Origin: Eledone cirrhosa
Lineage: Eukaryota
NCBI GenBank assembly: GCA_964016885.1
Contig: OZ024742.1
Location: 226,114,001 to 226,178,000 of the forward strand
DNA: 64,000 nucleotides
Direction of reading: 5' to 3'
The notes under the pieces were generated by a model. The model saw nothing but the letters and a program-made list of their open reading frames with translations, searched no databases and was not told where the DNA came from. Positions 53,581-61,849 of this stretch are shown here, piece after piece. How positions within the stretch are numbered: position 1 is the first letter of the stretch; every line of letters begins with the position of its first letter. The position numbers and the translations under genes were made by a program.

Positions 53581-53960
53581 ATATGTAGGTTGAATAATGA
53601 AAGCAAAATGCAAAAGTTTAGTGCTTAATTAGTTCATTGTTTTTCAATAATTTCATAAGATTGATTGATCATGATAAATCGATATAGTGACTAATGAGTA
53701 GTAGTTATGCAACTCCTTATTATTAGTCTTGGTTCTATAGATCCATCTTACTAACTTCATCAGAAATAATCTTGTTTCTGGCAAAGACGGTGAGTTGGAA
53801 CTATAATATTGAGGCTAATATTATAGAGTTGCATAACTACTATCGATTACTTACTATATTGATTTATCATGATCGATCAACCTTCTGAAACGATCATAAA
53901 ATATTGAACTAATTAAGCACTAAACTTTGCATTTTGTTTTCATTATTCAACCTATACATA
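53581..53960. mobile_element. Fold-back element of the same family as 31779-33063
   Basis: ~185-bp imperfect arms centred at ~53770, containing CTGATGA (minus) and GAAACGATCATA (plus). Confidence 0.8.
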
Positions 53961-54891
53961 TATATATATAGGTTACATATAAGTAGATTGTGCATGTATA
54001 GTATATCATCATCATCATCACTATTTTACATCTATATTCCATGCTTGCATGGGTTATACAGGTTGTCATTGTCATGTTATGAAGCTAAACAGGCCAGTTT
54101 ACTGTATCTTGTTTATATGTTCCATTCTGGTTTCTACAGTTGGATGCCCTTCCTAACACCAACTACTTCACAGCTTATACTGGGTACATTTTATTATGAC
54201 GCTGGCACTACCACTTGATAGAGTGGGGTGGCTGCTTTTTATCATGGCACCAGCACTACAACTTTACACACAAACGCATATGTACTTGTAATCCATATAT
54301 AGAATACTTGAGTAGTTTCAAATGGGTCCTATATTTCACATCTCACCTGGGCCTATTATCAGCTTTAGGGGTCTATATTTCACATCTGGTCTAGGCCTAT
54401 TACCAACTTTTTACAAAAAGGAAAGGGGGGTGGTCATCAGATTGGATCAAGTATGTTTCCATTGTTGACATATACCTTTCTTATCACAATCACTAACCAC
54501 TTTACAGAGTGGACTGGGTGCATTCTATAATGCCAACAGCATTTGTATGCCAGGATTAAAATGTCCCCAATTTCACTGAATCACTGTATGCAGAACTACA
54601 GCTCTTCTAGATGGGTTGCCTTTACTGCAGCTTCAGGAGTCTACATCTGCCCTAACTAACCCATGCAAATATGGAAAACATGGATGTAAAAATAATGATG
54701 ATGATGATGTATGTATATGTATGAAAGTATGTGGCCTAGTAGTTAGAATATTGGACTCATGATCATTTCACATTGTATTTCATAATAGAAGTGAATCCCT
54801 ATTATCATAAGATGCAACCTTGTAAGAGGCCAGTTAAACGAGTACACAGGTGTAAGTTGAAAATTTCATTTCATTTTCATATATATATATA

Positions 54892-55229
54892 CTAATTTCA
54901 AAAACACCAAAGATTGAAGGCATTGTCAACCTGATATATGTTTCTGCTAGCCTAAACTCACCCTAGAATCATAGAATTACAATTTCAAAACTTCAAAATT
55001 TTTAATTTGAAAATGTTATAGTTTTTTAACTTGACCTTCAGCAGTTGGTTCAAGGTCAGTGTCATCAGAGTTTATTTATGCATCAACATCAAGTTATAAA
55101 ACTATAAAATTAAAAATTTTAAATTTTGAAGTTTTGGAATTGTAATTCTATGATCCTAGGGTAGGTTTAGGCCGGCAGATACATATTTCAGTTTGACAAT
55201 CCCTTGAATCTTTGCTGTTTTTGAAATTA
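54892..55229. mobile_element. Fold-back element with an extended-loop hammerhead relic
   Basis: ~140-bp arms. The two arms together give aaact-CTGATGA...GAAA-catat(a/t)-TC-agttt. Confidence 0.7.
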
Positions 55230-55626
55230 TTAAACAGCTCTGCGTGAACCCCATTGCATTGAGCTTTTAACCATCTGGTAAAGCAGTTTTAATACTCCAT
55301 TTATTAATAATATTATTATTACCACTATTATATATATATGTATGTATATATGTATATATATATATATATATCAAAGGTATATATTGAGTTAGAAACTCAA
55401 ATTAGTCTCTTACAATAAAATAGCTCTAGGAAAGAGATTTTTCCGAGCCGTATATCATAATTGAATATAAAAGATAAACACAGACATATATAAATATATG
55501 TGTTCAAATCGTAAGGGACCAGGTTCGCTAAGGTGAAACAAATACTAACTATGGACAATAAGGTTTGCCAGACTCAATTTAAGAATAAATCAAGAAAATA
55601 TAAACCGGAATTGTGGTAACTACCAA

Positions 55627-58247
55627 TCACCCATACAGCGTTTGGCTATGCTGTTTCGCAAATTAATTGTGAAGAGTACACTGACTATTTGCAACACTAA
55701 CTTCCAGAAACACTAACTTCCAGAAACCTGCCAACCACCTAATAACCTACAAATCTGGTGAGCACATAAGCCAGATTGACTTCTTACTAGTTAGGCAGAT
55801 AGTGTCTAATACCAAGGCATACCCTGGGGAAGAATGTACCCCACAGCATAGGTTAGTCGTTAGTGATATCTCAGTAAGCAAGAGATGGAATAAGACATAC
55901 AGGAAGGTGTGGAGAAGAAAGGTCTGGAAGCTAAAAGACCTTTCACTAAAATACAAATTTAGGAAAGCCCGTCAAGATGTGTATGACGAAAAAGAAGACA
56001 ATTTAGAGACGTATGACATAGATAGTAACTGGAATTTCTTATGTGACAACTTACTGCAGGCTACTGATGAAACTTGTGGCTGGAGCAGAGCTCCAACCAG
56101 ACAGAGAGTGACCTGGTGGTGGAACAGCACAGTAGATAAGGACATTAGAGACAAAAGACTAGCATGGAAGGCTTGGAAAAAGGGTGGGAGTAGGAAAGGA
56201 TATACAGCCACTAAGAGAGAAGCTAGACGTCAGGTGTACTTAGCACACAGGAGGCTGAGAGTAGGAGGTTTGCCAATGTTCTGCGACAGGAAGATCAGAG
56301 GCGTGCAGTATTCCACATTGCAAGGCAGTGTGTCAATGCAAATCAGGATGTTGTTGAAAATAAATGTGTCCGGAATGATGCCGGTGTACTTAGTGTCACG
56401 AATGATCAGAAAAAGAAAGCCTGGAAATGTCATTATGAGAGATTGATGAATGTAGAGAATGAATGGGGGAGAGAAAAATTACCCTCAGTAGATCCGACAG
56501 AGGGACCAGCTATTGAAATTGACGAATATAGGTCCAAGAGGTGATTAAGGAAATGAAAAATGGTAAGGCTGCTGGACCATCGGGGATAGTTGCTGAGATG
56601 CTGAAGGCATCAGGGGACGTAGGCACTAAACTGGTTGCGCGCATTATCAATCAAGCTATATATGGCAGTCATACCCAAAGACTGGTGCAGCAGTATTCTC
56701 ATAAATTGCTACAAAGGTAAAGGGGATGCTCTGGAGAGGAGCAATTATAGCGGTATAAAACTGATGGATCAGGTTATGAAAGTGGCAGAAAGGATATTAG
56801 CACAACTAATTAGAGAAAGGGTCAAACTAGATCAGATGCAGTTTGGTTTTGTGCCTAGGAAGAGTACAACAGATGCCCTCTTCTTGGTGAGAAAATTACA
56901 AGAGAGGTTCTTAGAGAAAAATAAGCCACTATACTTAGCCTTTGTTGACCTAGAGAAGGCCTTTGATAGGGTACCTCGATCTGTCATTTGGTGGTCCCTA
57001 AGGAAACTAGGTGTTGAGGAATGGCTTGTGAGGACAGTGCAAACTTTGACAGAGGTACTGTCAGTAAAGTGAGGGTAGGAATGGAGTTTAGAGAGGAATT
57101 TCAGATACAAGTAGGAGTACATCAAGGTTCCGTCCTCAGTCCGCTCTTGTTCATTATAGTCCTCCAAGCCATAACAGAAGACTTTAAGACTGGCTGTTCA
57201 TGGGAACTTCTCTATGCTGACGATCTGGTTCTTATAGCAGAATCAGTAGAGGAGCTAGAGAATAAATTCTGGCTATGGAAACTGCAGTTGGAAGCAAGAG
57301 GACTGAGAGTGAACCTAGCTAAGACAAAAGTGTTGATGAGTAGAAAAGAGGACAAAACTCTGATTCTGTCAGGGAAATGGCCATGTTCGATATGCAGAAA
57401 AGGAACTGGCATAAATTCTATAAAATGCACACAATGCAGATCCTGGGTACACAGGAGATGTAGCGGGATAGCAGGCAAACTAACAGGTAGGGAGAAATAT
57501 GTATGCAGTAGATGTACAGGGAAATTAGGCAGTAGAAGTTGCATTGATAGACACATTTTTCAAATCCAGGCGAGTGCTATAGAAGTGGTTGATAGCTTCG
57601 GGTACCTAGGAGATCAGATTAACATGGGAGGGGGGGGGGGTTCCGAGGCCATAGTATCTAGAATAAGGACGGGTTGGAAGAAGTTTAGGGAGCTGCTTCC
57701 TCTGCTGATGAAGAAGGGTTTCTCCCTGCGTACGAAAGGCCGATTATATGATGCCTATATGAGGAGCGCAATGCTGCATGGTAGTGAGACATGGGCAGCA
57801 ACTGCAGAGGATATGCGATGGCTGGAGAGAAATGAGGCAAGCATGCTCCGTTGGATGTGCAATATCAATGTGCGTGAATGACCCAGCATGAATGTGTTGA
57901 GAGGGATAGAATGTAGTGTGCGAAAGAGGAGACTGCGGTGGTATGGACATGTGATGCGCATGGAGAATGACCAATGGGTGAAGAAGTGCCATGAAATGGC
58001 AGTTGAAGGAAGACGTGGTAGAGGTATACCACGAAAAACATGGGCGGAGGTGGTGAGAACAGACCTCAGATCGCTGAAGTTCACGGTGGAGATGATGAAG
58101 GACCGTGACAAGTGGAGAGATGCTGTGCTGAATAAGACCCGTCCCACCCTTGCAAGCAGGGAAGAGCGGACGTAAAATGATGATGATGATGAGGATGATG
58201 ATGATGATGATAAAGAGGATTACCAATTCTTGCTCATCAGTGGGTGA
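55627..58247 (-). ncRNA. Discontinuous, fully canonical type I hammerhead with an RTE LINE inside loop II
   Basis: 5' half 58247-58229 TCACCCA-CTGATGA-GCAAG; 3' half 55662-55627 TTTGC-GAAA-CAGC atagccaaac GCTG-TA-TGGGTGA. Confidence 0.75.
55745..58211 (+). mobile_element. 5'-truncated RTE-clade LINE (APE C-terminus, RT, PHD-like finger), frameshifted
   Basis: QIDFLLV, FVDLEKAFDRVP, GVHQGSVLSPLLF, LYADDLVL, RLRWYGHV and GRGIPRKTW motifs; several frameshifts and stops; (GAT)n tail. Confidence 0.95.
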
Positions 58248-58365
58248 AAATTAGTAAACTCCTCACTTCTAAGAATATCAGACAACTGGTCCCTTACGAT
58301 TTGAATACACATATGTATATGTCTGTGTTTATCTCTCTTTTATATTCAATTATGATATATATATA

Positions 58366-58467: not shown

Positions 58468-59762
58468 TGAGAGTCAGCTGAAAAGTTCATCAGCTGACCA
58501 AGATACTGTTATAGAATGTGACCAAATGAGGTTTATTTTTCAACAGAGTCCCCCACACAGTTCTTCCATTGGTGTTGCAGTGTTTGGATCCCATTGGTGA
58601 AGAAGCTTTTATCTTGTTGGTAAAAAAGTCAACAGCAGCAGATATGACATCATCATCACTGTGATACTGGCTCCCAGCCAAGTGTTTTTTCTCATGTTGG
58701 GGAACAGGTGATAGTCAGATGGGGCCAAATCAAGAGAATAGGGAGGGGTGATCAACCAGTTCAAAGCCACAGTTATGCACAGCAGCCACTGAAACCAAGT
58801 ACTGGTGTGTTGGAACATTGTCCTGATGAAACAAGACCCCCTTTTGTCAGTTTACCTGGGTGTTTGGTCTTGACAGCCTTTCATAACTGCCTCAGCAAGT
58901 TGGCTTGGTACTCTCCATTGATGGTGTGGCCCTTTTGAAGATAGTCAATAAACACAATACCTTTTGCATCCGAAAAACTGAGGCCTTCCCTGCAGATGAA
59001 ATGACCTAGGCCTTATTTGGAGCAGGTGAGGTGTGTGTGAGGGGGGTTTCCATTGCATGGATTGTGTCTTTTGTCTCTGGCTCAAAGTGATGAACCCAAC
59101 ATTCATCCTGAGTTAGGAAACATTCAAGGAAACCAGCTGGATGGATCTGCCTCAAACAATGTCAGATTTTCCCGTGATCTGATCAGCCTGGTGTGCTTTT
59201 AATCAGGTGTCGGAAGACGTGGCACCCACCGAGCAGAAACCTTTGTCATGTCAAGTTCATTGTGCAGAATATTTTCAACTCTCTCACGGAATATGCTAAT
59301 AACATTTGCTATTTGATTTATAGTCACTCATCTGTCATCCCTCACCATGTGGTGAACAGGATCAATGTTTTTCCAGGTGGTGGCAGTTGTAGGACATCCA
59401 GACTTTGGGTCATTTTCAAGACTTTCCCTTCTCCTCCAAAATTCAGCTATCCCCTTTTTCACTGTTGATAAAGCTGGAGCATCATCCCCTAATGTAGCAA
59501 CCATGTCAGCATGAATGTCTTTGGGAGCTAAACGCTTTTTCTGCTGGCACTTGATAACATCACGCTGACAAATTTTGTCCATTTTCAAGAGAAGTTGCTA
59601 CTAGTTACTTTTGAAGTCGTCTTTGAACATCCAGAATCAGTTTACATGAAAAGAAAACAATGCAGTTATTAATAAGAAGAATTGAAATTAATGCATGCAA
59701 GATTTCACAGCTCTAGCATCACTCCTTCATTGTTAGCCTATGGACTTTTCAACCCACCCTCA
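58468..59762 (-). mobile_element. Full-length defective mariner transposon
   Basis: TA flanks, ~28-bp imperfect TIRs, N-terminal HTH region (LAPKDIHADMVATLGDDAPALSTVKK), PPYSLDLAPSDYHLF motif, many frameshifts. Confidence 0.92.
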
Positions 59763-60211: not shown

Positions 60212-61057
60212 TATGTTTCTTTATTAGCCACAGGGGCACAAAAGAAGGGGTCAAATACAAAGGGGGAAGTTTACATACAATAAAAATGCGTAAAATGTTA
60301 TCACAAATGCAATTTAAAAAATTAGTCGATTTTCCCCAATAGGGGAGACAGTTCATATGGGTAACACATACCCCCGAAAAAATGTGCAACCCTCATCTCC
60401 AGGAGTACGAAGAGTTTGTACTCCTTTCCTCTCCTCCTCCTTTTCCTCAACCTACAGGCTGATATAGAGAGAAGGCCCATTCACTCGGGTCATTCTCACC
60501 ACTTTCACCCACCTTTCATAAAACTTGCTGGGGTACAGCACCTCTCTCTCCATCTTGATTCTTCTTCCAAAGTGGTATTTGAAAAAAAGAATCAGTTGTT
60601 GGCCAGAGAGAAAGGTGTCTGACCTCAGCTCTTTCAACCTTGTCCACCATACAACCTCTTTCACCATAGCTATCACACAAAGGAAAACCGCCTCTCCTTC
60701 GTTTTTGAAGGAGGGTGGCGGTTTAATCATGACAATGGACTTGGTGGTCAACCGGATTGGTCCCACCCGCGACAATAGTCCTTCTACATAGCCCCACAAG
60801 TCAGTGACACCCGGGCAGTGTATGAATGCGTGCGTGACGGTTTCTTCGTTATGCACGCACCTCGGACAGATTTTTTTTGAAGGGTCCCTGCCCGGGCGCC
60901 CATGTCTGTAGAGCTTGTCTCGAACTGCTAGAGCTCCTCGGTAGCACTGCCAGGCCAGGGACTTTTGGAAGTTGTCCATCAGTCCCGGGCGGAAGGTCCT
61001 ACCGAACAGACTGGCCAGTTCATCTTCCTCTACGCCTAGAGTTTCACCGAGTGCGTC

Positions 61058-61058
<1 letters not shown>
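60212..61058 (-). mobile_element. Second 5'-truncated Tx1/L1 copy
   Basis: MDNFQKSLAWQCYRGAL...CPRCVHNEETVTHAFIHC, highly similar to 48210-49085. Flanked by (TATC)n. Confidence 0.92.
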
Positions 61059-61095
<37 letters not shown>

Positions 61096-61849
61096 GGATC
61101 GATAAATCGATGAATGGATTGATATATAGATAGAAAAATAGATAGATAGAAGATAAAGATAGACAGATAGACAGATAGATAGATTAGATAGATAGATAGA
61201 TTAAGTAGATAGATAGATGGGTTAGTTAGATAAATAGATAGAAGATATATATATAGAGAGAGAGGAGGGAGATCAACATACTGATATGTATATAGATAGA
61301 TAAATCTCTTGCAAGCACAAACACACACTAGAGCATTTAAGTTCAAAAAGAGAAATATTCCATCAATAAACTTAAGCCAATATTTTCTTGTCTTTGAAAT
61401 CTAGTATTTGGTCTAACAACAACAATATCATGTTTGAAATTAATATATTGAATCTTTCATTCAAATTCCAAACCAAAGAGAAAAATGATAATTATCGAAA
61501 CAAATGTAATTATTTGATAAATTAAAATTTCATCTCAAAATTATTTTACTCTAATTAACTTATTTCTGGTCAATAACCATATCTGTCTGCTTGCAAGACA
61601 TATATGTGTATGAGTCATCATCATCATCATGTTACATCCACTTTCCATGATGGCATGGGTTGGAAGGATTGGATGTTCTGAGACTAGACAAGTCACAGAG
61701 ACCTTATCTAGTTTATATATTTCATATTCGGCATGAGTTCTATGGCTGGGTGACCGTGTTAATGCCAACCACTAAACAAAGTCGACATGTTTTTCATGAT
61801 ACCAGCACTAACACTTTACAGAGTGAAGTGGATGTATTCAATTCCAAAC

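Follow-up and report, generated by a model that had tools for sequence, protein, structure and literature searches.

Animal non-LTR retrozymes, as set out by Cervera and de la Pena 2020 (PMC7229834) and by Li et al. 2026 (10.64898/2026.07.22.740005), are non-coding tandem repeats with a G+C content below 50% and units of 150-450 bp (PMC7229834), each unit with one type I hammerhead ribozyme; they come with many solo copies and with Penelope-like elements in the same genome. Most metazoan retrozyme circles are not predicted to self-pair their ribozyme shut (PMC7229834). Insertions of Penelope-like elements are truncated at the 5' end, form partial tandems, and come with an inverted copy that is likewise 5'-truncated (PMC8557442); according to Craig et al. 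2021 (PMC8557442) and Cervera and de la Pena 2014 (PMC4209133), they are found in (TA)n targets and carry a hammerhead in the repeat. To cleave efficiently in vivo, hammerheads depend on contacts between helices I and II (PMC4209133). A hammerhead whose core is split by a long stretch has been described in mammalian Clec2; it is of type III, its helix I being longer by 150-1,500 nt, and is situated in the 3' UTR of an mRNA; it is common to mammals and lowers reporter output. In their search, Martick and colleagues admitted inserted sequence in loops 1 and 3 (PMC2950038).

The locus presented here lies in a 64-kb stretch of Eledone cirrhosa DNA (the window) and comprises a type I hammerhead of a Penelope-type repeat family, split by a LINE in loop II; in this anatomy the preliminary description, made from the sequence alone, proved right. 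The locus very probably represents a neutral nested insertion into one copy of a retrozyme-like repeat, which left the ribozyme without a role. The parallel with Clec2 drawn at the outset is a loose one: the core is split in both, but Clec2 is of type III, with its enlarged helix I and its position in a 3' UTR (PMC6155905), while the window hammerhead is of type I, has 2.5 kb in loop II and belongs to a repeat copy for which no host transcript was found.

The split hammerhead and the inserted LINE

Table 1. Coordinates of the hammerhead halves, the host repeat copy, and the inserted LINE in the window
Feature	Position	Strand	Remarks
Hammerhead 5' half: stem I 5' strand, CUGAUGA, stem II 5' strand	58229..58247	-	stem I 5' strand 58247-58241; CUGAUGA 58240-58234; stem II 5' strand 58233-58229
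Hammerhead 3' half: stem II 3' strand, GAAA, stem III, GUA triplet, stem I 3' strand	55627..55662	-	stem II 3' strand 55662-55658; GAAA 55657-55654; stem I 3' strand 55633-55627
5' flank with first base of stem I, complementary to stem II 5' strand/loop II	58247..58266	-	predicted
Direct copy of repeat, 5' part	58213..58288	-	unit -48..+27; 5'-truncated
Direct copy of repeat, 3' part	55366..55671	-	reaches unit +344, a fixed end of the family, in a (TA)n tract
Left 'arm'	55451..55523	-	internal segment of the direct copy, source of the inverted right arm
Right 'fold-back arm'	58286..58359	+	inverted 5'-truncated piece of the repeat's 3' part (unit +180..+253)
LINE	55677..58212	+	5'-truncated, frameshifted, antisense to ribozyme; RT and PHD-like domain
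(GAT)n tail of LINE	58176..58212	+	minus strand (UCA)n, complementary to core UGAUGA
Target-site duplication AAGAG, left copy	55672..55676	+	
Target-site duplication AAGAG, right copy	58213..58217	+	

Both hammerhead halves are found on the minus strand where they had been reported, and the core is complete, with every core nucleotide present (Table 1). It corresponds to the type I core CUGAnGA / GAAA / UH with the G10.1-C11.1 pair. Stem III is closed round a 10-nt loop, and A17 of the GUA cleavage triplet lies at 55634, which places the predicted cut at 55634/55633. Stem II, initially described as 4 bp plus G·U, is present in this form, but the helix continues for 5 bp beyond a small bulge, leaving a 13-nt loop II that holds the insert. 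There is no contiguous hammerhead core within the 64-kb window, and its Rfam scan gave 0 matches, hammerhead included. The supposition that motif searches miss this ribozyme owing to its being split holds only as to the miss itself; the split is not the cause, since no hammerhead match at E<=1 was obtained in 16 loci with unsplit copies either.

The insert is 2,536 bp long, and its limits follow from the 5-bp target duplication on its two sides. Comparison with 19 relatives agrees with them, the LINE homology starting at 55676 and finishing in the (GAT)n tail. The earlier placing of the insert in loop II was correct, but of the limits then given, 55745-58211, the left one falls 68 nt short. 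The LINE has an RT domain, a repeat tail, and a target duplication, and is broken into several frames. It is provisionally taken to be of the RTE type, as in the preliminary description. It resembles the RTE-type LINEs of octopods in the combination of RT with a PHD-like domain, the short tandem-repeat tail, the target duplication, and the 5' truncation; it differs from most of its relatives shown in sitting outside a (TA)n tract, in which they end. From the majority of the 19 relatives it differs at 81 of 2,470 positions (3.3%; 62 transitions), an upper bound if its own subfamily is unsampled. When the scale of Octopus vulgaris, on which a divergence of 0.09 corresponds to 25 My (PMC13282606), is carried over, this suggests that the insertion is several million years old.

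Further elements are found nearby. Neighbouring the window, an open endonuclease-RT-PHD frame of at least 838 aa (L174:7486-9999, plus strand) is 54-63% identical to the inserted LINE over three frames. About 5 kb to the right of the window (L173:5049-9998, minus strand), frames of 496 and 1,153 aa make up an apparently intact endonuclease-RT-zinc-finger LINE, and a piece with the same zinc-finger domain lies in the window at 60452-61183. To the left of the element there are two long inverted repeats, one at 53613-53928 (157-nt arms, 2-nt spacer) and the other at 54890-55232 (119-nt arms, 105-nt spacer). Decayed frames on the minus strand at 58480-59600 resemble a mariner-type transposase; Pfam gave no match for them.

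The host repeat family

The host of the insert is one truncated copy of a ~515-nt non-coding high-copy repeat, of which the 3.0-Gb genome searched holds at least hundreds of copies. A first-look search returned 3,646 candidates, 40 of them scored; patterns lying outside the ribozyme gave 427 and 500 flank matches, and exact 5' halves number 486, with GAAAC in place in 392. Uninterrupted paralogues, for which a check had been proposed, do exist: the two-motif pattern of a contiguous core has 324 exact matches genome-wide, versus 0 for the reversed control. The unit is a circularly permuted tandem of 508-518 nt, this being the distance between two cores in L042, L044, L253, and L254, some of which have stem or site changes. 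Its G+C content is 33%, the longest stop-free frame is 70 aa (L042 monomer), and it contains no RT/GIY-YIG frame. L041, in which two cores lie 2,684 nt apart, was considered as a full Penelope element, but the frame is absent and the locus is a local duplication.

The three helices, with helix I open-ended, are backed by covariation across the family. In 48 aligned copies, pre-filtered for the core and with counts inflated by shared descent, 90.7% of cells are paired, and 8 pairs show double changes, with 39 cells as against 13.3 in shuffles. The double changes are AU (33 copies) and GC (12) in stem I, and CG (30) and UA (15) as well as AU (39) and GC (6) in stem III. Judging by the aligned sequences, the ribozyme is under selection in the source copies of the family.

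The closest described class is the non-LTR retrozyme, as it appears in the two papers cited. The family shares with it the tandem units each with one type I hammerhead, the low G+C content and non-coding nature, the many solo copies, and the presence of Penelope-like elements in the genome. It differs in its unit, which exceeds 150-450 bp, in that only dimers or partial tandems are seen, in a hammerhead with a long stem II, a 13-nt loop II, and a stable 5-bp stem III, and in a conserved 5' flank complementary to loop II. The window copy itself, unlike a tandem retrozyme with two consecutive complete hammerheads, is a truncated solo copy with only one.

The manner of insertion is that of Penelope-like elements. 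Among 143 loci examined for insertion marks, 128 were distinct; in these the 5' ends are scattered, an inverted piece lies on the 5' side in 95, and the 3' end falls at unit +253 or +344 in 109, of which 79 are in (TA)n. The window copy consists of unit -48..+344 and the inverted +180..+253 piece, and so the fold-back arms, supposed to enclose the hammerhead and to be split in the same way, are indeed present, but as an inverted internal piece of the Penelope type and not as terminal repeats or element ends. A MITE with terminal inverted repeats does not fit: the length and position of the arms differ among copies, and the direct copy passes the arm, extending ~85 nt beyond 55451, to ~55366. 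Besides the 5' truncation, partial tandems, inverted copy, and (TA)n targets, the family shares with Penelope-like insertions the hammerhead in the repeat (PMC8557442, PMC4209133); it is unlike Penelope-like elements in that its unit has no RT/GIY-YIG frame and its hammerhead is full-size, not minimal.

Penelope-type RT/GIY-YIG frames are abundant elsewhere in the genome. A comparison with 20 extended Penelope loci, 3' regions included, revealed no homology to the unit, nor was an autonomous partner found among 46 GIY-YIG loci, the unit pieces near 3 of the 46 resembling separate insertions. In a single case (L066:455-1728), a copy stands head-to-head with a fragment of the Penelope RT/GIY-YIG type, inverted and 5'-truncated, which shares 92% identity with one of these proteins of the genome. 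No microsatellite lies between the two; this is a possible co-integration pointing to the mobilising enzyme. With no partner in the 20 loci and this one junction, we go no further than to infer from the sequences that Penelope enzymes mobilise the family. Other hammerhead-like motifs occur at L014 (minus strand, 2246), L221 (2638 and 9155), L229 (3687), and L237 (4498); some of them are minimal, and a tandem Penelope-type element has at least one of them in each of its two copies.

The conserved 5' flank can pair with the stem II 5' strand and with loop II, alignment columns 6-31 matching columns 50-84 (58266-58210 in the window); 82.7% of cells pair, and double changes occur at two outer pairs. 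According to folding models, this pairing could be a blocking hairpin or, for its outer part, a pseudoknot, and the sequence does not distinguish a switch from a pseudoknot, as the active fold could accommodate the outer pairs in a pseudoknot too. In the latter form it would be a candidate for the tertiary contact between helices I and II. The local hairpin on the 5' half of the window copy is predicted at -16.1 kcal/mol (z -1.55, unexceptional alone). Its formation is context-dependent: it is predicted at above 0.5 in 25 of 48 short folds and at 0.06 in the full split RNA, and the consensus fold of the alignment does not contain it. As a lock on the circular monomer it finds no support (0.00-0.02 predicted in 2 of 2 foldable natural monomers), and paired indels in it, suspected from L104, failed across the whole alignment.

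Preservation, predicted folding, and explanations of the locus

It had been left open whether the intact core of the window copy is selected or simply young; youth is sufficient, and selection finds no support. Of 42 unsplit copies in 40 loci, taken from the head of the 427 flank matches and so without reference to the ribozyme, 28 have a whole core, although such anchors favour less decayed copies; an intact core hence needs no selection. At least 15 of the 16 scored stem pairs are kept in 20 of the 42, and all 16 in 8, as in the window copy, whose place in this best-kept fifth is unremarkable. Its 3' part differs from the 15 nearest copies at 8 of 305 positions, those copies being themselves 1.7-4.0% from their own majority, and its 5' part is 97% identical to the unsplit L035 and L003. 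The survival of the core is explained by a divergence of only 2-3% so far: at 3.3%, 13 core positions would be left untouched with p=0.65, and 45 core and stem positions with p=0.22. L035 has itself received another LINE-type (CAT)n tail, at L035:1754 (unit +204), away from the ribozyme.

Folding of the 2,918-nt natural RNA predicts pairing of the arms at ~1.0, of stem I at ~0.46, and of stem III at ~0.64, by which the halves would be brought together across the insert; stem II is predicted at 0.00, and the core is paired to the (UCA)n tail of the LINE at 0.74-0.92, with a similar result in the absence of the arms. In the control, 48 unsplit copies, the value for stem II is likewise below 0.5 in all 48, so folding separates split and unsplit copies poorly. 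With the halves as two strands and the hammerhead form scored as one fixed structure, this form lies ~10 kcal/mol above the free dimer when 13 nt of the tail are included and 3.5-6.3 kcal/mol above it without the tail. In the unsplit L035 and L003 it is 0.3-4.7 kcal/mol above the minimum, and in L009, also unsplit and with a stem I mismatch, 4.8 and 14.6 kcal/mol. Of the predicted folding obstacles, the trapping by the tail is the only one that unsplit copies do not share. We infer from the models that the ribozyme is inactive.

According to the favoured explanation, a nested insertion of no consequence, multimeric family RNA would self-cleave into monomers; copying of these into (TA)n sites by a Penelope-like enzyme would give insertions that are truncated, in part tandem, and often inverted. 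The window copy would have been 5'-truncated on arrival; with a single ribozyme, it would have been unable to release a monomer even before the split. A 5'-truncated LINE would then have landed in loop II with a 5-bp target duplication, and, if the locus is transcribed, the core strand would probably be caught in pairing with the (UCA)n tail.

It is unlikely that, after the same accident, the split ribozyme has kept some cleavage activity in vitro or in occasional read-through transcripts, aided by the 75-bp panhandle and with no effect on the host. All core bases and helices are intact, the arms and stems I and III are predicted to pair as given above, the 3' half retains, owing to the duplication, the segment CUCUUCAC of loop II, and high Mg2+ allows hammerheads that lack loops I and II to cleave in trans (PMC6155905). 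However, the hammerhead form is, with the tail, predicted so far above the free dimer, and the 5'-half hairpin can form 2.5 kb before the 3' half exists.

A working discontinuous hammerhead, whose halves are joined over 2.5 kb by the panhandle and which cuts read-through host RNA, is very improbable; in that event, the target duplication would preserve the loop II strand of the 5'-flank pseudoknot. If true, it would be the first ribozyme split in loop II through nested retrotransposition, and would show one way in which Clec2-like ribozymes originate.

We regard as extremely improbable the co-option of the split copy as a Clec2-like discontinuous ribozyme cutting a host transcript, for which the perfect core and stems, as well as the precedent of the Clec2 3' UTR (PMC2950038), might speak. 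Conservation is, however, no higher than in paralogues, a similar split copy (L171, see below) has lost its core, and no host exon was detected in the window. The nearest gene found is HYDIN, whose last coding exon, on the plus strand, i.e. the strand opposite to the ribozyme, ends ~3 kb before the window and ~58 kb from the ribozyme; its last three coding exons lie just left of the window (L172:1591-7008, plus strand), and the neighbouring exon is 76% identical to O. vulgaris HYDIN. Other host domains were absent from 147 frames (of 245 candidates) in the window and 30 kb of flank, a scan that short exons and long introns could escape. Finally, that the halves are chance matches or two unrelated insertions is hardly conceivable and is refuted by the 324 contiguous paralogous cores, together with the target duplication and the compensated base changes that stems I and III show between subfamilies, no point in its favour having been found.

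Other split copies and the significance of the family

Three split hammerheads, at the window locus, L242, and L171, were found in the genome by a few narrow searches. L242:550-745 (G000:C1:66217449, plus strand) is split in stem II by a ~110-nt piece of a SINE with a target duplication; its core is intact, and 6 of 7 stem I pairs are kept. L171:5932-7726 (G000:C6:91656431-91658225, plus strand), of a related subfamily, is split before GAAA by a 1.7-kb sense LINE with a degenerate 9-bp duplication, and its core is mutated to CAGAUGA. Among the first 100 listed of the 486 5' halves, 21 lack GAAAC in place, 9 of them owing to point changes; the other 12 were fetched, and L242 is one of these 12, hence one of the first 100. 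Another of the 12, L251, has a tandem duplication in loop II. Exact patterns for a LINE tail before the 3' half matched only the window and L171. L157, considered as a break at the same place, runs into N there and is not counted. The split is not unique, and if ~1% of copies are split, several would be expected among the 486.

A single such locus is of little weight, nested insertions into repeat copies being routine. A literature search for retrotransposon-interrupted hammerheads yielded only an unrelated paper. The host family appears to be a retrozyme-like repeat of cephalopods not reported before, with a hammerhead missed by Rfam: among the titles and abstracts found outside Repbase and the subscription journals, none describes an octopus or cephalopod hammerhead, though the supplements of PMC7229834 and PMC8557442 may list some. 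Given what PMC7229834 states on retrozyme circles, the family is a test case for a local switch or pseudoknot, and its naturally split copies of differing age, in the window, L242, and L171, provide a gauge of how far a type I hammerhead tolerates insertions in loop II.
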